Of a stretch of DNA of 64,000 nt, positions 1 through 64,000 are shown in pieces. Numbering within the stretch: the stretch's first letter is position 1; each line of letters opens with the position of its first letter. Source of the DNA: a virus; IMG/VR virus record IMGVR_UViG_3300034200_001443, positions 1 to 64,000 of that record, one strand, 5' to 3'. The translations under genes were made by a program, and so were the position numbers. Under the pieces are notes generated by a model. It did no database searches, was not told the origin of the DNA, and was given only the letters and a program-made list of their open reading frames with translations.

Positions 1-2425
<2,425 letters not shown>

Positions 2426-2449
2426 AACTAGAGGAATAAGGAGGTATAC

Positions 2450-3151: not shown

Positions 3152-3165
3152 GAAAGGTGAGTTAA

Positions 3166-12400: not shown

Positions 12401-15400
12401 ATAGATTTACTGTACAGACATTAGTTGGTGGAACTAACGCTAACCAAGATGTGTTCCATGGAACTTACAGAGCTCTAACTGGTTCAAGTGGAACAACACT
12501 ACTTTATACACCAGAGATTAAAACTGTAAATATTTTAGATAGAAGACTTACAGGAAGTACAAATAATATTATTAATCTAACTACACCGCACGATTTTATT
12601 GCTGGTAATTTTGTGTATCTAGAGAATAACAATAGCGATTCAAATGGATTTAATGCAACTTACTGGAATAATAAAGTAAACATTATTAGTCGTGAAAGTA
12701 CGTCTACAACTAGAACTATTAACACAGACAATCCACACTTTTATTCAGTTGGAGATCGTATAAAGATTTCTAATGTAACAGGAGACAATGCTAGCGATTT
12801 CATAGGAGAGTACACCGTTGCATCTATCCCAACCACTACACAATTCACATACACTGCTGTTAATGCTTTAAATACTGCACTTTTAACTATAACTGGAGTT
12901 TCTGAAAAAGCATTTCCTATAGCTACAGTCCCAGCTTTCTCTGTTTCTAACAGAAGTAGAGTTGGAACCGTTGCAGATATAACAACTTCTGCAAACCACG
13001 ATTTACTTGTTGGAGAAACTGTAAGACTAGATAACGTTACTGTAGGAGGAGTTCTTCAACCAGAATTTATTGGTGATTTTGTTATTACTGGAGTTCCAGC
13101 TGCTAACAGATTTACTTTTACAACTGCTACTACTGGAACAATAACTGCTGCTGTAGCATCTGGAACTATTGTTGCTGTAAATCAGATTCGCTATACAGGT
13201 CCTACATATACAAGAACTTTATCTGCAAGACAGCTAATTTCTAATACAGTTGCTAGCTTTACTACAACTTTTGATCACTATCTATCTCCAGGCACAACTG
13301 TAACTATTTCTTCAATATCTGGAAATCAACAGTCAGTGTTCAACGGAACATGGGTAATTGCATCAACTCCAACAGCTAGAACATTTACTGTAACTAGACC
13401 TCAACAAGCAGGTGTTACAACATTTAGCATTACAACTCGTCAAAGAACTTTAAATGTTGCTCGTATAACTACATCAGCTAGCCACACTTTAAAAGCTGGA
13501 GATATTATTAGCATCAACAGCATTACTGGTGCAGATGCCGATCAATTTAACGGAACTCATACAGTTTCTACTGTAATAAGTGCTACAGTATTTGAGTTCT
13601 TTACTTTAGCTTCTGCAAATATTACTTCCGCTTCAGTTACTGGAAACATGCTTATAGAGCAACTAGTTTCAGAAAACGTATCTGGAACAGTAACTTTAAA
13701 CACTATTCCTAGAGTAAACGCTACAGCAGGAAATCTTAAGCTTAGAGAAGTTCCTGCTTCTGCATTAGTTGGAGAACTTGTAACTGACACTAAGATTAGT
13801 GGCTTAGAGAATCAAAGAATTTATTATATTCAAAGAGTAGATGCAAATACAGTTAGATTATTTAATGACATAACTTTATTAAGCTCTACAAATATTTCTT
13901 CCGTAGGTATTGGTACCCATGCTCTAGTAACCTTCTCAGTTAATTTTAATGACAACACTATAACTATTCCTAACAACGGATTTAGCCTTGGCGAGCTTGT
14001 CGAGTATGACAGCGTAGGTCAAACTGTTATTAGCGGATTAACTAGCGGTACTCCATACTATATTATTCCTGTAAACGGAAACACATTTAAACTTGCAACA
14101 TCATCATCAAATGCTGAAAACAATGTTGCTATAGATCTTGTAGATTCCCCTGCACCAGTTGGAAGACAAAAACTTAAGTCTTTAATTAGAACACCAGACG
14201 GAACTTATGTAATTAGTGATATTGTAGATGCTAATACATTTGAAGTTACTGCAGCTGGAACTGTCCCAGAAATTGTAAAAATATTCAACCCAAGAACATC
14301 TTTAGATATTACACAGAACATTATAAAAGTTGTTTCTCATGGCTTTAATACAGGTACAGAAGTTACTTACTCAAATGGTGGCGGTACAGACATTCAAGGT
14401 CTTGTAGATGACACTCACTATTATGTAATTGTTGTTAATAAAGACTGGATTCGTTTAGCTGAAACAGAAGAAGATGCTAGTTCTGGTGTAGTTTTAACCT
14501 TATCAAGTTTTGGTGCTGGACTTGCTCACACACTTACCAGCGTTCAAATTAATGGACAGATTACTGGAACTGGAACTGTAACTACTACATCTGGTTCAGT
14601 ACTCGTTAACGGTTCTGGAACTTCATTTTCTAAGATTCTTAAGGTGGGAGATAGACTCCGTCTATTCCCAACAGATACAACAACTCCAGCATATTTTGCT
14701 TCTACAGATATAAACACTTCAACTGAAAATATAACTGTTGCTGCCCATCCTTTTGTTACTGGAGATGCCGTTTCATTTAATCCAGGAACTGGCGGACCTA
14801 TTCGTCAAATTTTCCGTATCAGCAAGTCTGGTCAAACAGTGACAATTGTAACTCGTGAACCTCACGGATATTCAACATCAAATACTGCAACTATTTCTGG
14901 TTTAAGTAATGCCAGCGCCGCATCAGAATTTAATGGTACTTACACAATAACTGTGTCTGATACTTTTACATTCACATATACTCATCCAGTATCTATTGCT
15001 AGCGCTATTACAAACGAGTATCAAACTTCTGGAACTGTACAAACAACAGGAGCTGGTGGTGTTGCACCTAACCCTCTAGTCTCTAATTACTACTATTTCG
15101 TAAGATCTATTCCATTTACAACAACTGCAACCGTATCTAACAGAAGAAGATTTACTTTAAATGGTTTTACATATCTTGAGTTTACTACTTCAGCAAACCA
15201 CAACTTAAGAGCTGGTAACACATTCACAGTATCTGGAATTGGCGGAGTTAATCCAGAAGTATTTAATGGAGCTTGGACAGTTCATCAAGTAACTTCAGCT
15301 ACTGTAGTAACTGTAAATGTTCCAGTAGCTGGAGATATTGCTCTTGGAACACCTGTAATAGGTGGAACATTAACTCCTACAACAAGTAACTCACTAACAC

Positions 15401-18126: not shown

Positions 18127-18651
18127 ATGGCTATCACTCGGTTGGGGACAGCTAGGCCCAATGCTAACCAAGCTACTGGTATTTATACTTTTTCTGAAAG
18201 TTATTTAATATCGGTAATTGTGGCTAATGTTGCTGCTACCTCCACTCCTATACCAAAATGTGCTATATACGTTGTACCAGCTGGAGCTATAACTGAAACA
18301 TCATATTCTTATATATGCAACAATTTAATTGTTGGTTTTGGTACTTCATTTGAAACATTTAGGTTTGCTGTAAACGCGGGAGATGTTCTAACTGTAAGAC
18401 CTTCTACAGATACTTTAGCTTTTAGCGTATTTGGTATTCTTCAAGATGATGTTGTAGGTCAAGGAGATTTACCTCAAACATTTACCAATAAAGTTATAAG
18501 AGGGGTAAGTAACACTTTATATGTAGACAAAGGTACTAGCGGGCAAAGAAATCCTGCCGCTGAGGTAGGTTATGTTCGTTTTAATATAGAGTACGATACC
18601 CTAGAGGTTAGAACTACTAATGGTTGGAAGAGAGTGACGGTAACCGAATAA
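18127..18651 (+). CDS. Hypothetical virion protein, N-terminal domain paralogous to the next gene
   Basis: Shares 'IY..P.G...[14 protein letters not shown]...GDV' with 18651..20588. Confidence 0.7.
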
Positions 18652-20588
18652 TGGCTGTTAGAAGAGTTGGTATTGTAAATCCATTAGCAAATGTTGCTGG
18701 ATCATTTCCTGCTTCAACACTAAGCGGTGTTGCTTCTATTATAGCAGCTAATACAGGAAATACACCAGCTTTAACTACTATATATATACAACCGTCTGGA
18801 ACGGTATCGTCAACAGATAGAGTATTTCTTTGTTCAAATTTAGAAATTGGAGTGGGTCAATCTTTTGAAACATTTAGATTTGCTCTTTCAGTTGGAGATG
18901 TAGGTTGGGTACAAAGTACAACATCTTCTGTATCTTCTTCTTTGACTTTAGTTTATGAAACTGAAGGAAAAACAAATGTAGTTTATCAAGAAAGCCAACC
19001 AAGCTTTCCTGAAGTAGGTTACATGTGGGTAAAGCCAAGTAATGGAGAAGTTTACTTTTTTGATGGATCTACTTGGGAGCAACTTGCTTATATAGGTCTT
19101 GGACCAACAGGTGCTACAGGTTCTACAGGACCTCAAGGTATTGTTGGCCCCACTGGTCCTCAAGGATCTGGAGTTCAAGTTTTAGGAACATACTCAACTG
19201 TAGAACTTTTAGAAGCTGATAATCCTGTAGGAAATATTGGAGATTCGTATATTGTTCAAAATGATCTTTACATTTGGTCTGATCTAAACCAAGAGTGGTA
19301 CGACGCTGGTCCATTTGTTGGCCCTACAGGAGCTACAGGTGTAGCTGGTGTAACAGGTGCAACAGGGTCTGCAGGAAATACAGGACCGACAGGACCTACT
19401 GGCCCAGAGGGGGGTCCTACTGGCCCTACTGGTGTCTCTGGAGCAGCTGGTGCAACAGGTGCGACAGGTGCGACAGGTGTAACAGGCCCTACTGGTCCTA
19501 GATCAGCTCCTGTATGGAGATTTAGCTCTACAACAACTGACTCAGATCCAGGAAATGGACAATTTAGACTTAATAGTGGAACTATCGGATCTGCTACTCA
19601 GCTGTATGTAAATAAATTAGATTTTGTTTACGGATTTGATTTTTCTAGTTGGATAGAAACATGGGATGATTCAACATCACCTGTCGGTGGAGTTATAACT
19701 CTTTTTACGTCTGCTGGAGCTGTAAGAACTATTCTTTCTGTTACTTCAGATGTTGTTCTGTCTGATAACTACTACAAAATACCTATTTCTTTAATTTCTG
19801 GATCTATTCCATTAGCATCTAGTAATTATAATTTTGAGTTTTCTAGAACTGGAAATGCTGGAGAAACTGGACCAACAGGTCCTGCATCAACTGTAACTGG
19901 ACCTACTGGTGCTGCAGGGGCAACAGGTGCCACAGGAGCTACTGGCGGAACTGGCCCAACGGGGCCAGCTACAACAAATGTTAATCTTTTAGGAAGCGTT
20001 GCCAATACTGGTGCACTCCCAACAGGTGCTACTACAGAAGACACTTACATATCATTGGACACTGGAGATCTTTATTTCTGGGATGGATCTAACTGGGATA
20101 ATTTAGGTCCAATAAATGGACCGAGTGGACCTACAGGTGCTACTGGTGCAACAGGTCCTGCTGGCCCAACAGGTGCTAGTGGACCTACAGGTCCTGCTGG
20201 TGATACAGGTCCTGCTGGCCCAACAGGTGCTGCATCTACTGTTACAGGCCCAACTGGACCACAAGGTGATTGGTCAAGCTCTCAAACTGTTAAGGAAGAA
20301 ACAGATAGCTACACTGTAATTGTTTCCGACGCAGGTAAGTTAATAAAACTTACAAAATCTACTGGTTTAACTTTAACTATACCAACCGAATCCGCACAAT
20401 CTTTTGGTGTAGGTCAGCAAGTAAACATAATTCAGTATGGAGCTGGTCAAGTAACAGTTACTGGTGATACAGGAGTTACTGTAAGATCAACACCTACATC
20501 AAAACTTAGAACTCAATACTCAACTGCTGTCCTTGTAAAAATAGCTACTAATGAGTGGGTTCTTGCTGGAGATTTGGCGCTTAGCTAA
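18651..20588 (+). CDS. Collagen-like fibre protein
   Basis: Start moved to the ATG at 18651 (TAATG overlap, MAVRRVG, parallel to MAITRLG of the previous gene). GPT/GAT runs; C-terminal domain shared with 3166..5052. Confidence 0.85.
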
Positions 20589-49825: not shown

Positions 49826-51910
49826 TTAGTATTCGATTGCCGCAGCGGTTGCGCCACCTGTTGTGTCACGGAGAGCTGCTGCTACACCGTTCACTGAGAT
49901 GGTTGATGTGACCTTGAGTGACTCAACGCCAACCTTTGCTACACCTTCGAAGGTTTCAACGAACATCTTGTAGTCGTTGGTTCCAACAAGGGTAGAATCA
50001 CGGATAACTCCGAGATCCAATGTACCGCCATCTAGGAACAAGAATGTTCCTTCTGCGAACATGTACCAGACGAATGTGTCTGCGAACTCGTTCATTGCAG
50101 CAGCACCTTGTGCATCGGTGAAATCATCGATGTGGTAGGTGATGTTGATGTTGCGAGATGCGATGTAACCATCGATCTCTGCGGCTGCATTAAGGGTGTT
50201 GTCACCAGGAGCTGCGATAGCAAGATCTGCAACCATTGCATCCTTGATCCAATATGGAGCAATGACGCGAAGTGGAGCATCTGCCTCTAGGCGATGGCGA
50301 CCACGGTAGTTAGCTGCTGCGCGACCTAGTTGTACTAGGAAGTCACGAGCTACACCGATTAGTGATGTTGATGTAACAGCTGTTGACAGTGCTGTCAAGC
50401 GAGTAAGGATTTGTCCTTCTGCTTCACGAGCGTGCTGAATAAGACCAAGCTCATTGTGGCGAGCGATCAATTCAGGATATGCACGAGTCATCAAGTTACC
50501 GAATTGTAGCTGTAGTGTTACAGCATCAGTAGCAACAGTGTTTTCACCAGCAGCAGTTACAGTCAAACTAAGCTTTGCAGCTGGGTTTGGTGTTTCTGCT
50601 GAGTCGTTTGCTGCGGTCCAGATTCCAACAGCGTTAGCGTATGAGCTAAGTACTGGTGGAGTTACGAAGCGGATACCGCCACGGTCAGCCTGGAATTTTG
50701 GAAGTGCATCACGAAGTGGACGAGCAGTGGTACCAAGACCAAAGATGTCGTACTTAACTTCGAATGGTGTTGAATGTCCACCAGATGCAACAAGTGCTTC
50801 AGGACCAGTTACGGCCTGAACCTTTGCCCAGTTTGACTCAGCATCTGTTGTCAGAGTGCGAGCTTCTGGGTATTGAGTAGCGATAGATGCAACGATGTGT
50901 TGCTCTCCATCTCCACCATTTACGCGACGTAGAGCGTGGATACGCTTTTCGAACGCTGAAGCAACATCGATCATGTTGTTCATTGGGCTGCCAGCTGTGT
51001 AGCCAGGAATGTCAGCACCCGCAGTGATTGCCACGGGAGCTACAGATGCCTGTGCAACAGGGCGACGGTCAGCCGGGACCTCGATATTGAGGTTATCTGC
51101 ATTATCAGCAGCGGCGGTCACAGGTGCCTCCATCTTTTCTTGAACCTCTGTAGGTTCTGTTTGTGTTTGGATTGATGCTTCTGCATCTTCTGTAACTTCT
51201 GCAACTGCAGCTTCTGAATCTGCAACAACTGCTGCATCTTCAACAACTACTTCTGCTTCTGTTACAACTGCTTCAACAGCTTCTGCTGCTTCAACAGGTG
51301 CTGCTTCTGCGGCTGGAGCATCTTCTGCACCATCTGCAACAACAGCGGTTGCCTCTACAGCGGCAGCTGCTTCGGTAACAACTTCGTTTGATTCTGTCGA
51401 AAGTTCGACGGTCTTATCTGCATCGATTGACGCTTCGGACATTTTTTCCTCTTCCTTTTTCTTTTCCTCATCCATCACTGGAGTTGGTGCTTCTTCTTCC
51501 ATTGGCATTTCTTCTGCCATAGGAGCTTCGGCTGCAGGAACTTCTTCAGAAGGCATGTCTTCTTCTTTTTTATCTTCAGCCATTGCAGCTTCAGATTCAG
51601 AAGTCATCTCTTCTTTCTTTTCCTCTGAGGAATCGGATTCCATATCCTTTTCTTTGTCTTCGCCGTACACACGAGAGGCTGCTTCTGCTGCCCGCTGTGC
51701 GAGCTCTTGAACCGCGGCCTCGCGTCGCTTGAATTCACCTTGAACGGTGCCAAGCATGTCGGCTAATGACGACATTGCGTCAACTGATTGCGGAGTAAGG
51801 TCATCTTTTTCTACAGACTCAAATTCTTTGATTATCTTGTTCTGTAACTCAGTAACTTGATCGTCAGTGAGTTCAGCTAGTGAATCAAATGATTCTTTAA
51901 TTTGGTCCAT
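49826..51910 (-). CDS. Major capsid (hexamer) protein with N-terminal acidic scaffold-like region
   Basis: Glu/Ala-rich N-terminal region, ALVASGG..P....YD, LP.F...RGGI, LDLG..RDS.L...NDY..F.E.FE; strong codon bias. Confidence 0.9.
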   Translation of the reverse strand: MDQIKESFDSLAELTDDQVTELQNKIIKEFESVEKDDLTPQSVDAMSSLADMLGTVQGEFKRREAAVQELAQRAAEAASRVYGEDKEKDMESDSSEEKKEEMTSESEAAMAEDKKEEDMPSEEVPAAEAPMAEEMPMEEEAPTPVMDEEKKKEEEKMSEASIDADKTVELSTESNEVVTEAAAAVEATAVVADGAEDAPAAEAAPVEAAEAVEAVVTEAEVVVEDAAVVADSEAAVAEVTEDAEASIQTQTEPTEVQEKMEAPVTAAADNADNLNIEVPADRRPVAQASVAPVAITAGADIPGYTAGSPMNNMIDVASAFEKRIHALRRVNGGDGEQHIVASIATQYPEARTLTTDAESNWAKVQAVTGPEALVASGGHSTPFEVKYDIFGLGTTARPLRDALPKFQADRGGIRFVTPPVLSSYANAVGIWTAANDSAETPNPAAKLSLTVTAAGENTVATDAVTLQLQFGNLMTRAYPELIARHNELGLIQHAREAEGQILTRLTALSTAVTSTSLIGVARDFLVQLGRAAANYRGRHRLEADAPLRVIAPYWIKDAMVADLAIAAPGDNTLNAAAEIDGYIASRNINITYHIDDFTDAQGAAAMNEFADTFVWYMFAEGTFLFLDGGTLDLGVIRDSTLVGTNDYKMFVETFEGVAKVGVESLKVTSTISVNGVAAALRDTTGGATAAAIEY

Positions 51911-51935
51911 TACTGTTCCTTTTCCGGGCCAGTTA

Positions 51936-52038
51936 CGACAAGAAGGTGTTAAGGCTTCTCGTCTCGCTTATCAGTCGAGGCCGAGGGACTCACAGACGCA
52001 TTAGATGCGTGGAGGCACTCCACCTGATTTATATAGTA
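51936..52038 (-). promoter_or_regulatory. Putative promoter (-10 TACTAT) and structured 5' leader of the capsid gene
   Basis: - strand TACTAT at 52038-52033, then atcag...ctgat enclosing acgca/tgcgt, then a 9-bp stem gacgagaag/cttcttgtc before the aagga RBS. Confidence 0.55.
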
Positions 52039-52078
52039 CATTATTTTTTATATGGTTATTTGTACGATTATCTTCTAC

Positions 52079-55000
52079 TTAGGTAAGTAAGCGAAGAAGC
52101 TTTGCCATCTGGGAAGATATTTCTGATTGATTATAGAGATCGCTACCTGAAATAAACTTCTTCAAACCCTCTGTTGCTTCGTCAGCATCTTCTTGACCAA
52201 TCTTGTCCTCTACACGAGTAATCATGTCTTTCATGAGGTCTCTAAGAGCTGGAGGAACGTCTGAGAAGCGAATCTTTTCTGCATCTTCACCGAAGGCAAA
52301 AGGTAGGTTAGCAATAACCTTTCCAAGCTCTCCAGCGCTAATTCGAACGTTCTCTAAAGCTTCAGCATTTAGTGCTCCAGAGTCCAATCGGTCAATAATT
52401 CCGAGTAAATCTCCTGCTGCTTTAGCTGCTCCAGCGTAATCGCCAGTGCTATCAAAGTTTTCAGCTTCTGCAATTTTATCTAGGACACGGTCTAAACCAG
52501 ATGTTCCAAGATCCTGCTTGATACGGGCTAATACCTGACGGAACTTGCCTGAGGCATCACGAGGTTGAGTTTCAGGGGTGTATTTAGCACGGCCATCTTC
52601 ATCACGAGAGATACCATCATTTTCTTGATCTTTACGAGCTTTTGCTTCAGTTTTTAATGCTTCAATTTCTTCATCTGTAAGGTCAGCAATCTCTTCTTCT
52701 ATAGGATCTTCAGCAAATTCTTGTGTTGAAAAAACTGCTTCTGAATTCATAGAAGCTGCTGCAAAAGTTGCTCGAGTTTTCATAGTCTCGACAATTTCAT
52801 CTAAATTAGAGGCTGCACCTTTCCAACTTTCTGGAATGATTTCTTCTCTATTAAGACCAATAGCACGTTTCATGATATGACGTTTTACCTTGCCACGGCT
52901 TCCTGGCCTTGAGCGACCATAAGCACGGATAGCATTTTTTAAATCCTGAGGATTGCGGATAGGAAAGGATCCATCTGGAAGTGCTTTTCCTTCTTCAGCA
53001 AGACGCATACGAGTCTTACGAGAGATAACTCCCATTTCATTTTCTGGGTCATCATCGAACATCTCGGTCATATAGTCATAATCGAGATCCGAGTCTACTT
53101 TTATTTTTGAAACTTTTGCAGCAATTAAAGCTTTTTGCTCTGATAATTGTGCATTTTGAAAAGCTTGAATACGAGAACGAGCATCATTTGCTGAAGCAAC
53201 TAAAGCTTCTTTTTGTGGACGCTCTAAAGCTTCAAGACGACCCTTCATTTCTAAAAGTGGATCGCTTTTTAGTTGTGCAAGAACACTTGCTCCAGCAGCA
53301 ACAAGAGCCATAACAGATCCTGATGCAACACGAGCACGAGCAATTGGGAATCCTGGAACATTTACCTGACATACAGCAACTAGTTCTAAAGAATTTTTAA
53401 TTGGGCGCCAGTCACCAGATGGTGCTGATGCACGAAGTGCACGAATTTGTTCTGGTGTAGATCCTGGACGAACTGATCCAGCTACCCAAATACCATAGGC
53501 ATCTTCTCCAGCATGTACATCTGCAATTGCAGACGCTGTGTCGTCGTAGTGACGAACTGCTTCAGAGGCTGATGCTTCTAGTGATGCGTGTCCCCCCGCA
53601 AGAGTTAATTGCCCTACTGGTACATCTGTACCATCATCTGTACGAACTACACCTGTGTGAAAATATGCATACTTGCTACGACTGCGTGGAGGCTTGGTTC
53701 CCATACTCATGCCGATATGATCAACATTCCAAGCTGCGATATGACCGAATACACGACCATCATCATCAACAGTGAGTGGTGTTGCAGTTGTTAATTTTGG
53801 ATCGTTAAACCACTCTTTTGGTGGATTAACTGGAATTGCACCTGCGATCATTCCGCAAGCAACAAGAGCCGAAGCATCGAGAGGGTTTACTCCTTCGACA
53901 TATACGCCGTCAGGGATATTCACTTCTTCCTCTTCTCCGCCGAGCTCATCGGCGAGTTGAATTGAGCATTCTTGGAAAGCTGGCTTCGGCACCAAAGTCA
54001 CAGCCATGACTCGTGCTTTCTTGATCTTTATTTTACCGCTTTCTACCTTGGTGTCAGAAGTTTCTTTAACCTCTTGAACCTCTTCGTCACCCTCAAATTG
54101 ATCGAGATCTGCCGAAACTCCACGAATAAAGCCACCACGAACTAGTCGTTCAGCTTCTTGTCCATATGCGCCTTTATCAAAGTAGCCTTTAGCATTTCCT
54201 ATTCCGCCATCTACTCTTTCCATTACAACAATTTTTCCAACTACAACCGACCCATTATGGCCTTCTCCTGTTTGAATTTGCCATAAAAGAGGCAGTGGAA
54301 GATCTCTTATAGAAAGAGCATCTTTAACAATAACTCTGCCATCTCCAGACTCGACTTCTTCTGGGATAACTAGAGGAATATAGAACTCTGACCCTTGGTC
54401 ATAATCCATGTCGCCACCAGCGGTCATAACTCTAGCTTTAGCATCTGCTGCTCTAGCACGCATAATAAAAGTGCTCAAAAGTTCATCATAATTATGCAAA
54501 GTATCGACACTAAATGATGTCATTTCACGATTCTTTTTATCGCCTGGCCAGTAACCATTTGCTTCTTTATGACGAAGAGCGCAGTAGCCCTTTGCACGAG
54601 GTCCCATGTATTTAGCTAATTGACGATAGCAACGGGTCCAGTCTCCTGGAGTTCTCCAACGAATTTTTGCTGCACCTTTACCGTATAACCAATAACGACG
54701 AAGCTTTTCTGCTTGACCGCGGTTACGATCTAGTCCTCCAGCAGCAGTCATTGACTCGCCTTTGTTGTCTACTTGCTCTAAAACGTCAACAAGAGTTTTG
54801 TCATCTAAGACAACCACTGGTGGAGGTGTTGCACTACGAAGATCATTTAATATCTGGGAATCAAGTATCCATTTACCATCTTTACGAGTGTAGGTAGCTG
54901 GTTCAATTGTTTTATTAGATGCAGGTACAAGAGCAACTAAATCCATAACAGCTTGCGGGTCATCTGGTGAAACTATTGCCATATGAAGAATAGGCACATC

Positions 55001-56851
55001 TGAAGTTTCAGGAGTCATTGCTTTTTCTTCTCCAGCAGAAGCTTTTAGAGGACGACCTTTAGAGTCAAGTTTAGGAGATTTAATTCCTCGTTCTTCAGTA
55101 ATTTTTTTTGTTTTTTCTGGATCTACAAAAGGATTATATTTACGACGAGTATCTGGTCCAGATTCAAGCCAAGGCTTAAGTATAGGAAGGTTGTATGCAT
55201 TTACTTCCTTAGTCCAATTAGTAAACTTTTCTGGGTAATACTTGTATAAAGGATTGTCTTTAGAAACTTCTTTTTCTACGTTTTGAGGTTGTTGAGGAAC
55301 TGCAGTTTGAGGAGTAGCTCTTAAATTAGAACTTGCAGGTGCTTGAGTTGGTTGTGGATCTGGAGACAGTCTTTGATCTGAAACCCATTGAGGATAATTA
55401 GTTAGCATTAAATTTAAATTTTGTGCGTTTAGTGAAGGAAGAGTTCCTGGCATACGGATAGGTGAATCCATAGGAGTACGAGGCTCACCAAGAATTCCAG
55501 ATGTATCTAATTCTCCTTCTGCAACTGAAGTAGGAATAGGAACGTATGACTCTGCTGGTTCCGTCATATTTGCAGCAATACTAATTAAATTTCCGTTATC
55601 AAGTTCTACTTGAGCAGTTTGTGTTTTAGCGTCAAGAGCACGAATGTTTCCTTGATATTCAGGACGGCCACCGATAATTACACGGCCACCCATCTTTGCA
55701 AACTTACCTGTTTTATCCCTTAACTGAGCAGATGCTTTTTGAGAGCGTTCTTCTGGAGTATAAATACCATCACCTTCACCAGAACTTGGAGTCTCTCCTG
55801 CAGCAGTTAAGCTGTCATCAAAGGAGTCCCATGAATCAGACATTTCATCTTGAAAAGCTAGATCATCTAACAAATCCATATCAATATCTGGGTAGGCTTC
55901 TTGATAAATTTTGCTTTCTTCTGGGTATAGCTTTTCTACCTTATGTGCAATAAATGGTTCGTTGTCGATAAGTGCTGCAATAAAAAGTGCAGTTTCTGTA
56001 TCTACTGGAACGTGTCCACAAGGTGTTTTATCGTTAGGGTTATCAAGAATTTTGTCGTACATAGACATATCAGCGTCTGGCATACCCATATCTTCCCAGT
56101 CGCCATCGTCCCACACATAAATGTGCCCTGCTGGTTCAATTCGATATAAGCGATCAATGCCAGATCCGTCTAAGCGAATACGAGCAAAAAACTCAATAAC
56201 ATTGTCTTCAGGCATTGTCTTTGAAACAATAAAAGAATCGTAATTAATTCTTTTTGGCATTTCAAAATCCATAGGATCTAATCCGCCAGCAGTAATTGAA
56301 TTTGATTTAGCCTTTTTATTTTCACGGTTTACAATTGCAGTAGCCCAAGACTTAGCCGCATCCCCACCCCAAAGAGCCCAAGCGATGCGGCCATTTGATG
56401 GGTAATTCTTTTGTCCCGGCTTGTAGCCAGTTCCCTTTTTATCTACTTCATGACGTGGGAAGTATTTGGCAATGTGTCGGACTTTTCTAATTCCGATTTG
56501 GCCACCCCGAGCAAGCGTGCGAGCGGTATTAAGCCCAACTGATGTTCCTCCTCTATCTTCTTCTTTGCGCCACTCAAGGCCGCGCTTTGCCTCAGCAACT
56601 ACTGAGTCAGGAATCGTATACATACGATCATTATTTGAAAAAACTTTAATATCTAAATTTGTAAGAGCTGCTGCTGCAAGTTCTACAGATGCTCCACTTG
56701 GACGGTTATTTTCTGAATCCCAATTAACTGCTGCAATAAGAGGCTCTTTAACGTCTAAAGCAACAACAAGGTTTTTTGACTCGTCTACTACAGCACCAAA
56801 AGTTTCAGATATGAAGAGAAATCTAGAGCCGTTACGACCAACGTAATCCAT
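52079..56851 (-). CDS. Multidomain capsid maturation protease / head polyprotein
   Basis: Start moved to MDYVGR (TAATG overlap). Protease core ESGDGR...LPL.WQ...GH..S.VVG...GVSADLD...PAFQE, then GRVFGHIA.W...SGDWR, a DUF6582-like ALPDGSFPI domain and other small domains. Lies directly upstream of the capsid gene. Confidence 0.8.
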   Translation of the reverse strand: MDYVGRNGSRFLFISETFGAVVDESKNLVVALDVKEPLIAAVNWDSENNRPSGASVELAAAALTNLDIKVFSNNDRMYTIPDSVVAEAKRGLEWRKEEDRGGTSVGLNTARTLARGGQIGIRKVRHIAKYFPRHEVDKKGTGYKPGQKNYPSNGRIAWALWGGDAAKSWATAIVNRENKKAKSNSITAGGLDPMDFEMPKRINYDSFIVSKTMPEDNVIEFFARIRLDGSGIDRLYRIEPAGHIYVWDDGDWEDMGMPDADMSMYDKILDNPNDKTPCGHVPVDTETALFIAALIDNEPFIAHKVEKLYPEESKIYQEAYPDIDMDLLDDLAFQDEMSDSWDSFDDSLTAAGETPSSGEGDGIYTPEERSQKASAQLRDKTGKFAKMGGRVIIGGRPEYQGNIRALDAKTQTAQVELDNGNLISIAANMTEPAESYVPIPTSVAEGELDTSGILGEPRTPMDSPIRMPGTLPSLNAQNLNLMLTNYPQWVSDQRLSPDPQPTQAPASSNLRATPQTAVPQQPQNVEKEVSKDNPLYKYYPEKFTNWTKEVNAYNLPILKPWLESGPDTRRKYNPFVDPEKTKKITEERGIKSPKLDSKGRPLKASAGEEKAMTPETSDVPILHMAIVSPDDPQAVMDLVALVPASNKTIEPATYTRKDGKWILDSQILNDLRSATPPPVVVLDDKTLVDVLEQVDNKGESMTAAGGLDRNRGQAEKLRRYWLYGKGAAKIRWRTPGDWTRCYRQLAKYMGPRAKGYCALRHKEANGYWPGDKKNREMTSFSVDTLHNYDELLSTFIMRARAADAKARVMTAGGDMDYDQGSEFYIPLVIPEEVESGDGRVIVKDALSIRDLPLPLLWQIQTGEGHNGSVVVGKIVVMERVDGGIGNAKGYFDKGAYGQEAERLVRGGFIRGVSADLDQFEGDEEVQEVKETSDTKVESGKIKIKKARVMAVTLVPKPAFQECSIQLADELGGEEEEVNIPDGVYVEGVNPLDASALVACGMIAGAIPVNPPKEWFNDPKLTTATPLTVDDDGRVFGHIAAWNVDHIGMSMGTKPPRSRSKYAYFHTGVVRTDDGTDVPVGQLTLAGGHASLEASASEAVRHYDDTASAIADVHAGEDAYGIWVAGSVRPGSTPEQIRALRASAPSGDWRPIKNSLELVAVCQVNVPGFPIARARVASGSVMALVAAGASVLAQLKSDPLLEMKGRLEALERPQKEALVASANDARSRIQAFQNAQLSEQKALIAAKVSKIKVDSDLDYDYMTEMFDDDPENEMGVISRKTRMRLAEEGKALPDGSFPIRNPQDLKNAIRAYGRSRPGSRGKVKRHIMKRAIGLNREEIIPESWKGAASNLDEIVETMKTRATFAAASMNSEAVFSTQEFAEDPIEEEIADLTDEEIEALKTEAKARKDQENDGISRDEDGRAKYTPETQPRDASGKFRQVLARIKQDLGTSGLDRVLDKIAEAENFDSTGDYAGAAKAAGDLLGIIDRLDSGALNAEALENVRISAGELGKVIANLPFAFGEDAEKIRFSDVPPALRDLMKDMITRVEDKIGQEDADEATEGLKKFISGSDLYNQSEISSQMAKLLRLLT

Positions 56852-57561
56852 TATTTGCTCTCCTCTGTAACTGGTCCACCAGCGACCCATGCACGACATG
56901 TGCGGGATGCAGCGCATTTAAAGTCGAATGCTTCACAATACCCTAAATCTCCAGCTTCGATTGAGCCCCAAGCATCATTTCCTTCTTCATTTCCAAGCCC
57001 AGAAGCAATACAATCCAGCATCCTTGGGGTCTGAATAAACACGGCACAATTGCCGCAAAGTTGTTTCTTTGCAGTCTCTTTATCGACAGACCATTCATCT
57101 GCAATTGCTTCCCAATACTCATCGTTTGGTTCTAGAGGATTAAGGGGTCCATACATAGCGGTGTCAATAGCGTTTTTACGGTTATCAAGATTAATGCCAA
57201 TATCTTGAGTAGCTGGAGGGCATCCTTCAGATGTCTCAACAGCTGCTGTCATCGATCTACCTTCGATAGAATAAGCTACTTCATACTTTTTAACATTGTC
57301 ATATGTTAAAGGAGTTTTAGTAGCACTGGCATTATCAAACATTTCTGTAACTATTTTGTAGTCTTCTGGGAGAATGTCCATAATAGACATATTTTCCAAA
57401 CTCTCATCGTCTTCGGATAGCAGTTCCCATTGATTGTTTATTCGAGTAAAAATTCCGTAATCTTCTGTATAAAAAATTTGTTGAAGAATAATGTTGTCAC
57501 CATTTGAGTAGACTAATGAGACACCCTCTTTAGGGTACTCTTTAGCGGAAGAGATCTTCAT
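56851..57561 (-). CDS. Hypothetical head-module protein with Cys-rich C-terminal domain
   Basis: CPPATQD...N..NR...YGP.NP...CGNC..F...GYC...FKC...RTC.AW. Confidence 0.75.
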   Translation of the reverse strand: MKISSAKEYPKEGVSLVYSNGDNIILQQIFYTEDYGIFTRINNQWELLSEDDESLENMSIMDILPEDYKIVTEMFDNASATKTPLTYDNVKKYEVAYSIEGRSMTAAVETSEGCPPATQDIGINLDNRKNAIDTAMYGPLNPLEPNDEYWEAIADEWSVDKETAKKQLCGNCAVFIQTPRMLDCIASGLGNEEGNDAWGSIEAGDLGYCEAFDFKCAASRTCRAWVAGGPVTEESK

Positions 57562-57686
57562 AGTTCCTCCATTTCGTCTTCATCTGCCTCGACAGCGTTA
57601 GGGTCTGACTCGGCAATATCCATCAACTTTTTATAAGCTGCGGCAACGAGCTCAGCATACTTTTCTTTATCTGACTTAGTAACCAT
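57558..57686 (-). CDS. Small acidic protein (42 aa), absent from the ORF track
   Basis: MVTKSDKEKYAELVAAAYKKLMDIAESDPNAVEADEDEMEEL*; TAATG overlap upstream and ATGA overlap downstream. Confidence 0.7.
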   Translation of the reverse strand: MVTKSDKEKYAELVAAAYKKLMDIAESDPNAVEADEDEMEEL

Positions 57687-60600
57687 TATACAGTCCTTTC
57701 ATCTTTGTTTTCAGGTTCAGCTTTTTTCTCTGCAGCAATCTCTTCTCCAGTTTTACCTTCACTTCCAACTCCGCTGCCAATTGGATTGCCGTCTTCATCG
57801 ACAGGACCTTCTGGCTCTTCTTGCTTTCCAAGCATATGGTCAACTGCTCTTTGAGCTTGTTTTGCTGCTTTAACGATCATCTGTGGATTATTTTTTACAG
57901 CTGGTAGCCAAGACTTGGCATATGCTGCAACGTTTTCGAAGTCAATTTTTACACCAAGACGACCTGCAACAAGTGCAACGGTAATTTCTGCAATAAGCTC
58001 TTCTTCACCACGGCTTTCTAAGTGCTTTCCATAATTGTCCAGAAGTTCTGTTCTATCCAAACGTGACCTATGACCAGTGCTATGCGCTAATTCGTGAACA
58101 AGAGTTTCAAAGAATGATTGCTCAGACTTGAACTGCTCACGTTGTGGAAGCTTAATAATGTCATCTATAGGGCTATAGAAAGCTTGATCTTGAGCTACAA
58201 ATAGAATTTCTGGCTTGTCTTTGTATGCTTCAAGAATTGCTGTTTCGCCTTCTGTAACTGGAATTGGTTCTCCCTTTACAATTGCTGGAAGATCAATATT
58301 CTCAGCTTGCTCTACGTTAAAGACTGTACGAATTGTAGGTGGTCGATAGACACGAACTTTTTCTTTTGTACCGTCTGGCTTTTCAACCTCTTTAAATATT
58401 TGTGGCCAGTGGATAACTTGAGTTCCCTTTTCACCACGACGAATATTTCCGCCAAGTTTTTCTGCTTTATTGTATGTAAGGAATCTGTTGTCTGTCCAGC
58501 CATTCTTTTCCATAGCTGCCCATAAAACAAGGATGTTTGATCCTTCATAAGTTTTACCTGTAGCAACGCTAGTTGGAAGGAATCCTCCACCAGTCCAAGG
58601 CTTTTGCCATGGGACAGTTCCTCTTTCGATTGCTTCAATAATTGCATTAGCAACTTTTTCAACAGCTGGATCAATTTTTTCAGCTGTTTTAACAGTGCTT
58701 TCATTAAACTCATCTTCAGTTACTTTTTCAGTAGGAAGAGCCATTCCCATAGCTGTTTCTACGGCAGTTGGCTTCTTTGGAGACTCGTCTTCATCTTCAG
58801 TGTATTCTTTAATCCAATTAAGTGGACCTGGATCTAACTTTTTCTGTGCACGAGTAAGTGCAACATATGCAAGACGAAGTTCCTCGTCTACTGGCATTTC
58901 AAGTTCGCCAGTTTTTTTGTTTGTACGAGGACCCCAGAAGTCATCAAAAATACGAACGTTGTTCCACTGTAAGCCCTTTGACTTATGTGCAGTGGTTACA
59001 ATTACATCAATTTCATCTTCTTCTTCACCTGCATCAGGTGCAAAACCTCCTACACCTCTGCGTAGGTCATTAATAGCTTTTTGACGATCTAAATCGTCTT
59101 CAACTTCTTTAAACCACTGCTTACCTGTCGCATCCCAACGGAAATTTTGATCTTTAATTTTGTCCTTACCTTTAAATGTTCCATTACCAGAAAGACGAAT
59201 TGCTTTATCTTTAACTTCATAATTAATACCTTCTCCAATAGAACCCTTAGCTCCATCTTCAGCTTGATCTAAAGTAATCTTCTTAAAATCAGATGATGGT
59301 TTTAGGTCTTTCTTTTCAGACTCAGGTGTAGCAACCTTTACTCTGCTAAGAATATCTTTAATAGATCCAATTCCATTTTGTACAACTAAATCGTATAGGG
59401 CTTTTACTTTTCTACCTTCGCCCTTTTCAACAGCTTCTTTTACCTCAGACCAATTTTTAAATTCTGCAAGATCTGGGTGCATTGTTGGCTTTTTAAACTT
59501 TGTCTGGTCTCCTATAAGCCATGAAGCACTAAGAACAAGGCTTTCTAATTCGTCTTTTGTTCCTTTTGTAATTCCAACAACCTTGCCAGCATCAAGAAGT
59601 TCAATCATTGCTCGGAATCCACCAGAGTTAGTACGGGTGATTACAACATCTGGATCTTCCATTCCATCTACTACTTCACCTTTTGACCCAGAACCTTCAA
59701 CGCGGTACTTAGAATCAAGTTGAGTAAGGAAGCGATTTGCCATTCCAGCAATTTCAGGGCCAAAACGGAAAGATTGAGTTAGTGGAAGATCCCATTTAGC
59801 TGTTGTCCTATCTAACTGGTCTTCTGCTCCACGGAATGCATAGATTGCTTGGTTTCCATCGCCAACATAAACTTTTTGAATAGTTTGATCGGCAATAACC
59901 TTTGCAATAACTGGGTTAATGTCTTGAGCTTCATCAAAAAAGATTACATCTGCTGGAGTTTTCATTCCAGAGCCAATAGAACCTAAATCTGGATTGCTTA
60001 ACGCCCAAATTTTTGTAATGTGAGCATTGTTGATACCAAATACTCCTGCAGGACTGTTTAGATCGTCCCAATAAGCATTGGCATACTCTACAAATGAGCG
60101 AGGAACTTCATCAAGCTCTTCTGTAAAATGTTTAGCACCAAGCTCATCGTCTGCGCTAATTGAAAAGTTATTAACTGCTTGCTTAATTATTGCTGGGATT
60201 TCTCGTGAAGAAAGACTTACTTCTACACCCTTAAGTTTTACACCAGTTGGTTTGATTCCAAGCTCGTCTGCAATATCTTCAGCACGAAGCTTCATATTTG
60301 CAGTTTTACCCTTTTGGTTTAAAAATTTTTGACGAATATCGTTGCTTACACCTTGGAAAGCAATTGAATCACCTGTGCGTGATTCAACATTTTTAGGCAT
60401 CTTGCCTTCTGCTTCCATCTGTACTGTTTTGTTAAATGCAATATAAACAATCTTTTTCTTAGGTTGTTCCTCAAGAAGTCGACGAGCAGCAAGTGTGAGT
60501 GTGCTTGTTTTACCTGTACCAGCTAAGGCACGAACAACGACGTTATCACCAGTCATAATTGCTGTAACTACATTTCGTTGCTCGGCTGTAGGAGGGAATT

Positions 60601-63600
60601 TTTCTCCTGCATATTCGTAGTTATCTTCTGGAAGAGCGTTAGGAACAGCTGAACCTTCTTCAGAAAGCGGTGCCATGTCATAAACTTCAGCTCCCATGTC
60701 TGGAAGTGCCATACCCATTGGAGTTTCTGGAGTATCTTCAGGTTTTCTCCAAACCTTTACCTTATCTGTTAAAAGGTAAACGTCGCCGCCGCCTCCTCTA
60801 GAACCTCTAGTTTTTTTGCCAGTATAAACTTTGTCGTCTCTAATCATCATCTTATGAATCGTAGTTTTTCCACTAGGGTCTAGCTTGTCTCCAGGCTTAA
60901 GATCCTTTGCATCAACTATTGATGAAACTAAACCTCTGGTAGTAGGACCTTCTGGAATAGACATTCCCATTCCCATATCTTCCACACCAGAAGAAAGGAT
61001 GTTATCTCCATCATCAAGGTTAAATACTTCTAAGCTGCTAGCACTAACATTTTCTCTTCTCTTAGTGTCATCATATCTGACCTTGAGATAATTTTTGTAT
61101 TTATTTTTTCCGTACTCTTCCCAGAAAACCGACACTGTTCCAGTTCTTCCATTTTTAACGTTTCTAACTCTATCTCCAGCTTTTATGGCTACGTTGTTAG
61201 CGTCTATGTGGAACTTAGAAGAGCCTTCTCGTGCAATAACCTGATCTTTAATTGTTTCGTCAATATTAAGATCCTTAATTGCTTCTTTAACTTTTTTACC
61301 AGACTTAGCTCCAGATGTAATAGTTTCAATAGCATCTGCAACAACTGAAGCCGCTTGAGGGTCTGTAACCTCTTGACCCTTGACTGGCTTTTGTTTTTCT
61401 GAAATTTTTGGAGTAGGGTCGCTTGGTATTGGTTTTGGCAGAATGTCTTTAATATCTTCAGGTTTAATTTTGCCAATAGAAGATCTACGACGAACTACTC
61501 CTCTAAGTACTTTTCCTCTAGCCCAACCAACTCCTGGAGTTGAAGAAGGTTCTACACGTTCTGAAAAAGGTTTTCCATCTCTTAATCTCTTGCGATAAAT
61601 AATAAGTTTGTCAGAGTTTTCTGGGTCAATTTGAATATCTACAACTTCAACTAATCCTGATGTACCTTCAAGAATATCTCCAATTTGTAGTTCGTCAACT
61701 ACAACAGATCCTCCACCATTAACTGCATAGGTATTCTCATCATCAAGTGCCCAAGCTTCGTTAATAATGTCTCCGAATATAGAAACGTGAGCGTAATCTG
61801 TTACTTTATCTGTAGGTCCATCTGAACCAAAGGTTGATGGTGAAACAGCTTCAGGTTGATCTCCTTGGGCTTTAAAGTCAGCTAAATCTTTTTCATATTG
61901 TTCAAGTTTACTTTCATATTCTGCCTTACGCAGTTCTGGCTCAAATTCTCTATTTTCTGGTTTCATTTTCTTAAGAAGATCTTCTAAAACTATTGGAAGA
62001 ACTTCAGAATCTGTCACGGCATTGTGCCACTGCTTATCTTTTGCATCAACTCCAGCCTTCTTTGCAACAGTTACAAGAGAACTACCTCTAGCAACACCTT
62101 TATTAGCAGCATCTATTTCAATAGTGTCAATAACTCCACCGAAAGAATACTCAATTCCAAATTTTTTGGCCCACTTTTCAAAAGTGTTTGTATCAAATTC
62201 TGCGTTATGAGCAACTAAAATTGCGTCTTTTCCAATAAATTCTGCAAATTTACGAAGCTGATCTTCAATGCTTGGTTGAGTAGATAACCACTCGTCATCA
62301 ACTTTTACACCTTTATTGTCAATAACTTTTTCTGGATTTAGAGCTCTATTGCCATTTTCATCAAGGTAAGGCTCTACTATTCTAGTTTTTCCTACATACC
62401 GTTCTTTTGTGTAGTAGTAGTCATCTAGAGGTTGTCCAGGATTCATAAAGAGATCTATTTCGCCAACTTTTTTACCTTTTTCATATAAAGATGCAGCAAG
62501 TTGAATAGGTGCATCTGGATCATCATAATCAAAACGACCAGTGCCTACCGTTTCAAAGTCAAAGTAAACAACTCTTTCGTCTTTAAGAGCTTCCCAAATA
62601 GCAGCGCCATCTTTTAGTTTTGTTAGTTTTTCAGCTGACCCGAAAAATGCTGGTCTGTTTGGACGATCAGGCTTGCTTAAAGCAGGAGATACTGATGGTT
62701 TGTAATCCTTACCTGCTTCTCTGCGGGCTTCTTCAATTTCAGCTCTCTTTTCAAAATATTCTTTGCCCTTTAAAGTTCCATTTGGAATTCTTTCAATTTC
62801 TGGTTTGTCACCAGATTTTGGCATATTAGCTTCAGACTCTCCTCTGATAGCGCTAATTATTGCTCCTTCATTCCAATCATTCTCTTGGATTGTATGTCCA
62901 GGATAGTAACCACGAACAATTGCTTTTATTTCTACTTCGCCATTGTCTGGTCTTACATATTCTCTCGTTTCTTCAAGAACTTCTGTTACAACAAAGAAAC
63001 GTTCTAATTCTTTAGTTTTTTCATTTACGCTAAATGTAATATCTCCTGGTTTAAGGTCCCTAGCTTTAACCGAAACAATAGAAGCTCTAGGAGCTTGAGC
63101 AGTAGATACAGACTCGACGTCTGTTGGAGGAGTCCATGTTGATTTACGACGATCCAACTCTTCATCGTATTTGGCTCTTGCTTCATTGTAGCCTGGGCTA
63201 TCCCCTCTAAAATCTTCACGCTTTGGTTGACGAAGTTCTGGTAAGTCTCCCTTTTCTGGAGGAGTTGCACCACGATAAACATCAAACAATGTGTCATCTG
63301 CCCAAAGCTTGCTTGATTGTTCAACAGATCCTGGGTAGTAGCCGCTAACAATTGATGCTGGTACTTCTACGCCTTTAACTGTCTTCTTATACCCACCTTC
63401 AACATTTGTAATTGTGAAGAAATCATTGACAGTTACATCGCCTGGTTGAAGATCTGCGCCACGAACTGAGGTCTTAATTGGCTTTGAAGCTTCTGGAGTT
63501 ACTTCTTCAGTTGTAGAAGTTTCTTCAGTAGGAACCTCTACTGACTCTGCTGGTCTCTCACCAAGAACAATTTCATCAATTATTCTGGTAACTTCATCTA

Positions 63601-64000
63601 GCTCATCTTTAAGAGCTTTTTTCTGAGCTGGAGTTGTTTCTTCGGAAAGATCTGCTCTATCAATCTTTCTTTGTATTTTGCGACGTCTGTCAACAAGTGC
63701 TTTAAGAACTTCTTTATCTTTAACGGAAAGAGGAGTTGGTTTTTCTTCAGCTACTTTTGGAGTCTCTTCTTCGGTTGAAGTTTCTTCAGGCTTATCTTCA
63801 GATTCTTCGAGAAGTTTGTCTTCACGCTCTTTACGTTTTCTAGCACGAGCATCAGCCAGCTTGCGACTTCTTTCTTTTCGCTCGTTTTGATCAGCAATAA
63901 TGGCATCCATCTCGTCATAATAAAGATTTAACATATCAATCATGTCTTGATCAGAAAGATTTTCTAGTTTTTTCTTATAATCTTTCATAGAAGAGCGAAT
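57686..64000 (-). CDS. Giant polyvalent protein (>2100 aa, 5' end probably outside the window): small barrel repeats, DEDDh exonuclease, UvrD-like SF1 helicase, ArdC ssDNA-binding and MPTase domains
   Basis: Frame is open to the window edge. Exonuclease: FDFET/AHNAEFD/HNAVTD. Helicase: ALAGTGKT/DEAQD/VGD..QAIY.FRGA/T.HKSKGL.W/YVALTRA. ArdC/MPTase: PWQKPW...Y.G.N...GEKG...VFNVEQ and HELAH...EELIAE. Confidence 0.9.
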   Translation of the reverse strand: MRSSMKDYKKKLENLSDQDMIDMLNLYYDEMDAIIADQNERKERSRKLADARARKRKEREDKLLEESEDKPEETSTEEETPKVAEEKPTPLSVKDKEVLKALVDRRRKIQRKIDRADLSEETTPAQKKALKDELDEVTRIIDEIVLGERPAESVEVPTEETSTTEEVTPEASKPIKTSVRGADLQPGDVTVNDFFTITNVEGGYKKTVKGVEVPASIVSGYYPGSVEQSSKLWADDTLFDVYRGATPPEKGDLPELRQPKREDFRGDSPGYNEARAKYDEELDRRKSTWTPPTDVESVSTAQAPRASIVSVKARDLKPGDITFSVNEKTKELERFFVVTEVLEETREYVRPDNGEVEIKAIVRGYYPGHTIQENDWNEGAIISAIRGESEANMPKSGDKPEIERIPNGTLKGKEYFEKRAEIEEARREAGKDYKPSVSPALSKPDRPNRPAFFGSAEKLTKLKDGAAIWEALKDERVVYFDFETVGTGRFDYDDPDAPIQLAASLYEKGKKVGEIDLFMNPGQPLDDYYYTKERYVGKTRIVEPYLDENGNRALNPEKVIDNKGVKVDDEWLSTQPSIEDQLRKFAEFIGKDAILVAHNAEFDTNTFEKWAKKFGIEYSFGGVIDTIEIDAANKGVARGSSLVTVAKKAGVDAKDKQWHNAVTDSEVLPIVLEDLLKKMKPENREFEPELRKAEYESKLEQYEKDLADFKAQGDQPEAVSPSTFGSDGPTDKVTDYAHVSIFGDIINEAWALDDENTYAVNGGGSVVVDELQIGDILEGTSGLVEVVDIQIDPENSDKLIIYRKRLRDGKPFSERVEPSSTPGVGWARGKVLRGVVRRRSSIGKIKPEDIKDILPKPIPSDPTPKISEKQKPVKGQEVTDPQAASVVADAIETITSGAKSGKKVKEAIKDLNIDETIKDQVIAREGSSKFHIDANNVAIKAGDRVRNVKNGRTGTVSVFWEEYGKNKYKNYLKVRYDDTKRRENVSASSLEVFNLDDGDNILSSGVEDMGMGMSIPEGPTTRGLVSSIVDAKDLKPGDKLDPSGKTTIHKMMIRDDKVYTGKKTRGSRGGGGDVYLLTDKVKVWRKPEDTPETPMGMALPDMGAEVYDMAPLSEEGSAVPNALPEDNYEYAGEKFPPTAEQRNVVTAIMTGDNVVVRALAGTGKTSTLTLAARRLLEEQPKKKIVYIAFNKTVQMEAEGKMPKNVESRTGDSIAFQGVSNDIRQKFLNQKGKTANMKLRAEDIADELGIKPTGVKLKGVEVSLSSREIPAIIKQAVNNFSISADDELGAKHFTEELDEVPRSFVEYANAYWDDLNSPAGVFGINNAHITKIWALSNPDLGSIGSGMKTPADVIFFDEAQDINPVIAKVIADQTIQKVYVGDGNQAIYAFRGAEDQLDRTTAKWDLPLTQSFRFGPEIAGMANRFLTQLDSKYRVEGSGSKGEVVDGMEDPDVVITRTNSGGFRAMIELLDAGKVVGITKGTKDELESLVLSASWLIGDQTKFKKPTMHPDLAEFKNWSEVKEAVEKGEGRKVKALYDLVVQNGIGSIKDILSRVKVATPESEKKDLKPSSDFKKITLDQAEDGAKGSIGEGINYEVKDKAIRLSGNGTFKGKDKIKDQNFRWDATGKQWFKEVEDDLDRQKAINDLRRGVGGFAPDAGEEEDEIDVIVTTAHKSKGLQWNNVRIFDDFWGPRTNKKTGELEMPVDEELRLAYVALTRAQKKLDPGPLNWIKEYTEDEDESPKKPTAVETAMGMALPTEKVTEDEFNESTVKTAEKIDPAVEKVANAIIEAIERGTVPWQKPWTGGGFLPTSVATGKTYEGSNILVLWAAMEKNGWTDNRFLTYNKAEKLGGNIRRGEKGTQVIHWPQIFKEVEKPDGTKEKVRVYRPPTIRTVFNVEQAENIDLPAIVKGEPIPVTEGETAILEAYKDKPEILFVAQDQAFYSPIDDIIKLPQREQFKSEQSFFETLVHELAHSTGHRSRLDRTELLDNYGKHLESRGEEELIAEITVALVAGRLGVKIDFENVAAYAKSWLPAVKNNPQMIVKAAKQAQRAVDHMLGKQEEPEGPVDEDGNPIGSGVGSEGKTGEEIAAEKKAEPENKDERTV

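Follow-up and report, generated by a model that had tools for sequence, protein, structure and literature searches.

The DNA analysed here (the window) is the first 64 kb, 64,000 nucleotides, of a 134,380-bp phage contig (IMG/VR record IMGVR_UViG_3300034200_001443), and it holds part of the gene for a giant polyvalent protein of 3527 amino acids (aa). Within the last third of this protein, a short peptide of the form MGM[AS][LI]P, denoted here the Met tag, occurs three times in linkers that separate a small beta module, a UvrD-like helicase and an ArdC module ending in a zincin-like metallopeptidase (MPTase) domain. The recurrence is not due to chance, and related phage proteins keep the peptide at the same joints. 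The three copies are a real, conserved junction tag, and we consider it probable that this tag serves as a proteolytic site for one protease or another. That they are the junction sites of a virion-associated polyprotein, with its own MPTase as the leading candidate enzyme, is a narrower and more tentative proposal, to which we would give a little less than an even chance.

One peptide at three joints of a polyvalent protein

The polyvalent open reading frame (ORF) lies on the minus strand and is truncated by the window edge (57686..64000 in the window); the whole gene spans 57689..68269 of the contig. The recognizable modules are a DnaQ/RNase T-like exonuclease, the helicase, the ArdC-N domain and the MPTase (coordinates of all features are given in Table 1), and nothing was found in the first 1423 residues of the 3527-aa protein. 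At least two unrelated enzymatic domains in a single phage-encoded chain, the defining property of polyvalent proteins, are therefore present. The MPTase residues H3392, E3393, H3396, E3423 and E3424, which make up the HExxH motif and a downstream glutamate pair, are invariant in 18 diverse homologues; with its catalytic motif intact, the active site looks functional.

An AlphaFold2 model was built for residues 2400-3527 from 21 homologous segments (alignment A2); its mean predicted local distance difference test (pLDDT) score was 70.5, and model residue numbers convert to protein residue numbers by adding 2399. The helicase fold is confident at model residues 160-766. All three tags fall in segments with pLDDT below 50 that separate the 78-aa beta module, the helicase and the ArdC-MPTase module. 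The preliminary description of this DNA, made from the letters alone, had placed three such peptides in acidic linkers of one gene, the second and third bracketing the helicase and parting it from ArdC, and had held that the peptide rather than the DNA is conserved. Each of these observations proved correct: the peptides are all in the minus-strand frame of the polyvalent ORF, with exact coordinates; their flanks are visibly rich in aspartate and glutamate; the helicase ends at residue 3150, ahead of tag 3, and ArdC-N begins at residue 3203, behind it; and the copies differ in synonymous codons (GGT/GGA, GCA/GCT and CCA/CCT). The broader suggestion that the motif marks domain boundaries is true of only three joints, all in the last third of the protein, the many linkers of the first 2400 residues being free of the tag.

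In a protein of the same composition, MGM[AS][LI]P is expected 4.9e-5 times, and a single shuffle out of 20,000 contained even one copy. The looser pattern GM[AST][LIV]P has three matches in the 118 non-overlapping ORFs of the contig (39,772 aa), all of them in the polyvalent protein. A fourth MGM string, at residue 277 of the 1612-aa protein encoded nearby, is not the same motif: it belongs to a conserved block, YVWDDGxWDDMG, in which the third residue of the string is Met in only 5 of 22 aligned rows. Just after tag 2 (window 60660-60700) there is also a weaker pairing of Met with a small residue, Y-[D/E/S]-M-[A/S]-P-L, which is kept in close relatives.

Conservation of the tag among homologues

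Homologues were collected by a word-indexed search limited to proteins of 1939-6173 residues, with 120 of the 146 matches listed. The 12 closest among the matches listed (P0003-P0014) are 67-94% identical to the window's protein. Eight of these have site 1: seven (P0003-P0008 and P0013) show MGM[AS][LI]P, and P0010 shows MGMALK. Site 2 is found in 11 (P0003-P0013, counting MGMSPP in P0006), with MGRALP in P0014, and site 3 also in 11, as MGMALP in eight and as variants in P0010, P0012 and P0013; P0014 has none. Among close homologues, the residues immediately flanking the tags vary while the tag stays. Searching homologues for the motif, a check proposed in the preliminary description, found it at the same joints, always at module boundaries.

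Three of the close relatives, P0009, P0011 and P0012, lack the 78-aa module and, together with it, exactly one copy of the tag. Module and tag therefore behave as a unit, and a comparison of these sequences points to gain or loss in the manner of a cassette. Small modules with a 'DLKPGD' string that resemble the 78-aa module recur earlier in the polyvalent protein.

At the joint between helicase and ArdC, where 44 homologues could be aligned, 27 keep hydrophobic-[GDE]-M-x-hydrophobic, 16 show the strict six-residue form and 43 have a Met. The 17 rows without the core consist of 16 with A/E-M-[S/N/T] and one, P0025, without the Met. More distant homologues, ~33-38% identical (L031, L032, L036, P0035 and P0043; alignments A1 and A2), carry three to four copies of hydrophobic-[N/A/G/D]-M-[A/S]-[V/I/L]-P, which precede the helicase and both of their ArdC-MPTase modules, arranged in tandem. 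Copies of the form (L/F)NMA(V/I)P are found in these loci and proteins; the window's protein differs in having Met and Gly at the first two positions of the tag and a single ArdC-MPTase module. Querying the full library with a profile of residues 3150-3527 adds P0126, with two copies, and P0123, in which Leu replaces Met in two copies; the same replacement is seen in one copy of P0043. In this search, stand-alone ArdC proteins were also seen to start ~25 residues beyond the position of the tag. Judging from these alignments, MGM[AS][LI]P appears to be the local form of a wider motif: a hydrophobic residue, G/N/A/D, Met, A/S/T, L/V/I and Pro.

Other peptides at the same joints in sister lineages

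Several lineages of the wider family carry different peptides at these positions. Just upstream of the helicase, [LIVM]TA[AS]x, often in the form NCGG[AS]G[IL]TAAVG, is found in 28 of 84 homologues that lack the MPTase versus 0 of 100 that bear it. Homologues with an embedded Peptidase_S78 domain (Pfam) carry hydrophobic-SSG, often R-L/F-S-S-G, in 5-20 copies each: among the matches listed, there are 156 occurrences in 13 Peptidase_S78 proteins versus 34 in the 107 others, which have 0-2 each. In the Peptidase_S78 loci, the next giant protein bears the hydrophobic-SSG peptide as well; so does, in two of five loci examined, a 685-694-aa protein encoded upstream. Ahead of ArdC-N, still other lineages have M-[L/F]-M-A-F or G-F-A-Q. 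Lineage-specific peptides at fixed joints are the pattern expected of protease codes.

A second tag class in the head proteins

A different short peptide, hydrophobic-T-A-[A/G/S], is found in the portal (as PRxLTAAA), the capsid protein, a 236-aa protein, the 1612-aa protein and, at residue 113, in the polyvalent protein itself, and is kept across related loci. The capsid protein has two copies, APVTAAA and AITAGAD, both ahead of the region that matches capsid families. Of the three T-A-A linkers in the 1612-aa protein, two precede its protease-like region by no more than about 130 residues. For the pattern [ML]TA[AG], six of the eight matches in the contig are in four ORFs of this head set, which make up 15% of the residues.

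The two tag classes are kept apart. None of the portal, capsid, 236-aa and 1612-aa proteins contains the Met tag; the canonical substrates of a prohead protease, where its motif would be sought, are the capsid protein, the scaffold region, the portal and the protease itself. The polyvalent protein has T-A-A once, near its N-terminus, while its Met tags are confined to the last third. This partition holds in L036, the portal of which is only 71% identical to that of the window. Conversely, clearly different variants of the Met tag occur in loci L016-L020, where identity to the window's proteins is 89-96% for the portal and 79-89% for the protease protein.

The protease-like region itself is recognized through PHROG 'head maturation protease' families (e.g., phrog_18402, E = 2.3e-58, for the 1612-aa protein). 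Its AlphaFold model is poor (mean pLDDT 51.6), and the best Foldseek matches, herpesvirus assemblins and phage T4 gp21, are weak, at E = 8e-3 to 4e-2. Searched by sequence against solved structures, the region gave no match. Considering that these best matches are to assemblins and gp21, the T-A-A tag is the natural candidate for the site of the prohead protease, and hydrophobic-T-A-[A/G/S] probably belongs to that enzyme.

The polyvalent protein (residues ~95-120) and the 381-aa protein encoded upstream of it (residues ~170-190) share a stretch of the form DLLPxxHPRST...T/I-A-[AS], which is kept in 18 diverse polyvalent homologues and ends in an M-T-A-A tag of the head-protein type. By sequence, this shared N-terminal stretch is a candidate head-targeting or propeptide region, and would be a better targeting candidate than the Met tag. 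The position of the gene and the head-protein-type tag near the N-terminus suggest that the polyvalent protein is packaged in the virion. A comparable arrangement exists in the cultured Arthrobacter phage Mimi (L082, MN234211.2), where gene 77, for a 2709-aa 'DNA helicase', has the portal gene on one side and that of the capsid maturation protease on the other. T-A-S-type tags are present in the Mimi portal, gp79 and protease; gp77 has no Met tag, so this phage offers no direct test of it.

What the tags might do

The preliminary description had proposed a cleavage or capsid-loading signal, acted on by the prohead protease or by the protein's own metallopeptidase with its HELAH motif. Cleavage is the best-supported reading: the sequence comparisons and the structural model point to it through the disordered linkers, the homologous joints, the general form of the motif and the tags of other lineages. 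The peptide lies exposed between folded modules and is the same at homologous joints versus variable flanks, and the phage encodes a candidate cognate protease with an intact motif. Capsid loading was rejected, the three copies being internal (residues 2432, 2518 and 3174 of 3527) and placed at module joints, versus the single terminal peptide of a loading signal. As to the enzyme, the balance leans to the HELAH metallopeptidase, with the prohead protease less favoured.

If the tags are junction sites, the chain would be cut at these exposed peptides in flexible linkers, and the 2400-residue N-terminal body would be parted from three released pieces: an 84-residue small module, the helicase and the ArdC-MPTase module. 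The enzyme would most likely be the C-terminal zincin MPTase of the same protein, acting in cis or between copies; other zincins suggest by analogy that the bond cut would probably be the one immediately preceding the conserved Met. A bolder version, which we find possible but rather doubtful, is that the ArdC-type MPTase is a sequence-specific self-processing protease recognizing hydrophobic-x-M-[AS]-[LVI]-P, so that a single chain would travel and free helicase and ArdC would be cut only after injection. A switch by single-stranded DNA (ssDNA) could then be envisaged, as in the DNA-dependent Spartan and IrrE, which are structurally ArdC-like.

The distribution of the tag gave a lead to the enzyme. 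The strict form, defined as [MLIFV][GNADSQET]M[AST][LVIM]P, has 53 matches in 103 MPTase-bearing homologues (380,738 aa; 20 carriers) versus none in 84 MPTase-lacking homologues (338,152 aa), and a second raw contrast between motif and MPTase stands at 62/38 versus 4/80. Across 79 related IMG/VR loci, the strict form matches 17 times in polyvalent ORFs (249,668 aa) versus once in the remaining ORFs (214,727 aa). In the metagenome-assembled phage DSL-LC01, the large protein of the head module has neither HExxH nor the Met tag.

Several results weigh against cleavage by the MPTase. The strict form is missing from 83 of the 103 MPTase-bearing homologues; some MPTase-bearing homologues have only shifted or degenerate tags, and those with Peptidase_S78 have hydrophobic-SSG at these joints. 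On a FastTree tree of the helicase from 183 proteins, the MPTase changes state only seven times, leaving only four supported independent pairs, and the motif goes the way of the MPTase in 1.3 of the four on average (sign test, p = 1). Because the association finds no support in this phylogenetic control, the 53-versus-0 contrast may be inheritance, and we retain it as a lead only, without the weight that the raw counts gave it. No rise in confidence was seen at the tags in the AlphaFold model, which therefore predicts no docking into the protease. A cleavage product has been observed for neither the polyvalent protein nor any relative. Passages of PMC5512222 describe the phage N4 virion RNA polymerase and plasmid ArdC/TraC1, all with MPTase domains, as travelling unprocessed, and passages of PMC7213743 report that no protease substrate was found for R388 ArdC and that its E229A mutant still worked.

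Some of these results are what would be seen if the tags were left uncut and served as docking or structural linker motifs, binding the capsid interior, the portal or a host protein, or spacing the modules. Binding motifs, too, are typically short conserved stretches of disordered linkers; the virion and plasmid proteins just mentioned travel whole, and AlphaFold places no tag in the protease. Yet the tag is always at module boundaries, a module that is gained or lost takes one copy along, and no other protein of the phage has a copy; moreover, at these joints sister lineages have quite different peptides instead, numbering 5-20 copies, which fits protease codes better than one conserved partner. 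We regard the uncut alternative as fairly unlikely, on a par with the bolder version of self-processing.

Less likely still is cleavage of the tags during capsid maturation by the prohead protease of the neighbouring 1612-aa protein. The polyvalent gene does lie between the portal gene and the protease and capsid genes, the neighbour does have a protease-like region by PHROG profiles and by the weak Foldseek matches to assemblin and T4 gp21, and the Met tag follows the outline of the head tag (hydrophobic, small, A or M, small). This outline recalls the herpesvirus assemblin consensus, (V/L/I)-x-A↓S. However, the head proteins use hydrophobic-T-A-[AGS] and never the Met tag, a split kept in L036, and an enzyme with Ala at the P1 position would be unusual in taking Met there. 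Considering that the Met and T-A-A tags never exchange and that closely similar portal and protease proteins in L016-L020 pair with different Met-tag variants, a second enzyme probably reads the Met tag, and the MPTase is favoured for that role as the only other protease in sight.

The evidence for cleavage names no enzyme, and the tag differs between phage lineages, perhaps along with different hosts, both of which could agree with cutting by a host protease after injection. Against this, every carrier of the strict tag (20 of 20) has a zincin in the same protein, and we recognized no known host protease motif in it; such an enzyme seems very unlikely. The lowest probability goes to internal translation starts, with the conserved Met as the beginning of separate helicase and ArdC-MPTase products. 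Met is indeed the most conserved tag residue (43 of 44 homologues at joint 3), and a small residue follows it, a feature of many genuine N-termini. This explanation was rejected because no Shine-Dalgarno-like sequence precedes any of the three ATGs, versus four of the seven annotated gene starts shown for the module, and because Leu stands in for Met in P0123 (two copies) and P0043 (one); the four residues after Met are, besides, conserved as a peptide.

Genomic context and source of the DNA

The polyvalent gene is placed between the portal gene and the genes for protease, capsid and tail. Upstream of it are a weak portal match and the 381-aa protein, which belongs to DUF5824; downstream come the 236-aa protein, the 1612-aa protein, the major head protein and the tail genes. 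With its ATG start as listed, the 1612-aa ORF shares 67 bases (window 56851-56917) with the end of the 236-aa gene; translation may really begin further on, at the Met at residue 23.

The capsid protein is 75% identical to its counterpart in DSL-LC01, an Actinomycetia phage, and more distantly related to those of many cultured actinobacteriophages. From this kinship, the DNA probably comes from an uncultured phage of lake Actinobacteria, the host assignment being by relationship. Elsewhere in the window, on the plus strand, are three large proteins with collagen triple-helix repeats (2-5052 and 18624-20588) and a 2896-aa ORF (9427-18117), all presumably fibres or decoration.

Table 1. Positions of the tags, modules and related features. 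HMM, hidden Markov model; coordinates are those of the window unless stated.
Feature	Position	Strand	Remarks
C-terminal 2104 codons of the polyvalent ORF	57686..64000	-	ORF list and translation; Pfam: RNase_T, UvrD-helicase, UvrD_C, ArdcN, MPTase-PolyVal
DnaQ/RNase T-like exonuclease module, residues 1896-2109	61943..62584	-	Upstream of all three tags; PF00929, E = 2.1e-13; HMM span
Tag 1, MGMGMSIP, residues 2432-2439	60953..60976	-	Within AlphaFold model segment 1-58, pLDDT<50
Small beta module, 78 aa, residues 2440-2517	60719..60952	-	Between tags 1 and 2; strands at AlphaFold model residues 70-109, pLDDT about 45-55
Tag 2, MGMALP, residues 2518-2523	60701..60718	-	38 residues before helicase; within model segment 104-159, pLDDT<50
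UvrD-like superfamily-1 helicase module, residues 2556-3150	58820..60604	-	PF00580, E = 8.1e-16; PF13361, E = 2e-10; HMM span
Tag 3, MGMALP, residues 3174-3179	58733..58750	-	24 residues after helicase, 24 before ArdC-N; within model segment 767-800, pLDDT<50
ArdC-N ssDNA-binding domain, residues 3203-3302	58364..58663	-	PF08401, E = 6.5e-31
Zincin-like MPTase domain, residues 3342-3480	57830..58246	-	PF18818, E = 9.9e-30; HELAH at 58082-58096
Prohead-protease-like region of the 1612-aa protein	53147..54364	-	PHROG 'head maturation protease' families
MTAAG, residue 723 of the 1612-aa protein	54737..54751	-	Further copies at residues 370 and 831
Hydrophobic-T-A-[A/G/S] tags	window 49826-57561; contig 68273-71154		
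Peptidase_S78/hydrophobic-SSG set	loci L041, L064, L066, L072, L078		Proteins P0060-62, P0068, P0071, P0102, P0104-106, P0108, P0114, P0118, P0120

Comparison with known systems

The sites of T4 gp21 and herpesvirus assemblins are short consensus peptides repeated in head proteins and cut during maturation. In the phage described here, the candidate likeness to them is hydrophobic-T-A-[AGS], whereas the Met tag differs from it in sequence and is restricted to the polyvalent protein. Among the titles and abstracts listed for mass-spectrometry work on prohead protease sites in actinobacteriophages, none concerned this group. Capsid targeting signals, as in the T4 internal proteins and P1 DarB, are short peptides that send cargo into the head; the Met tag is instead internal, repeated and located at joints. 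The signals of the T4 internal proteins are N-terminal and single. For P1 DarB, passages of PMC9024508 place the signal at the N-terminus from truncations.

The best-studied relative, R388 ArdC (PDB 6i89 and 6sna; Gonzalez-Montes et al. 2020), is homologous to the last 330 residues of the polyvalent protein (E = 8e-44) and has the same layout of an ssDNA-binding and a metalloprotease domain; unlike them, it is a stand-alone protein of about 300 aa without the upstream linker. If the MPTase does process its own chain at the Met tag, the tag would be the first natural substrate for the widespread ArdC-type metalloprotease domain.

The closest parallel is the class of polyvalent proteins, known from phages and conjugative elements, described by Iyer, Burroughs, Anand, de Souza and Aravind in 2017 (PMC5512222), which, as here, combine a phage-encoded exonuclease, a superfamily-1 helicase and ArdC-N with MPTase-PolyVal in one chain, and for which passages of that paper predict processing by the MPTase. 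Those passages name no cleavage site, the sole match to that term being the title of a cited paper. They cite P1 DdrB as processed, and the passages of PMC9024508 on this protein give no mapped site. Searches of the literature with the motif strings found no relevant paper, in agreement with the preliminary description, which had not recognized the motif. The Met tag, the T-A-A tag and the hydrophobic-SSG peptide of the sister lineages together suggest that phages of this group may run at least two parallel "cleavage codes" in one capsid. In contrast to the 2017 passages, a defined six-residue tag is found here at exact joints and is conserved over a family of lake-phage proteins, which gives the prediction of MPTase processing exact residues on which it can be tested.

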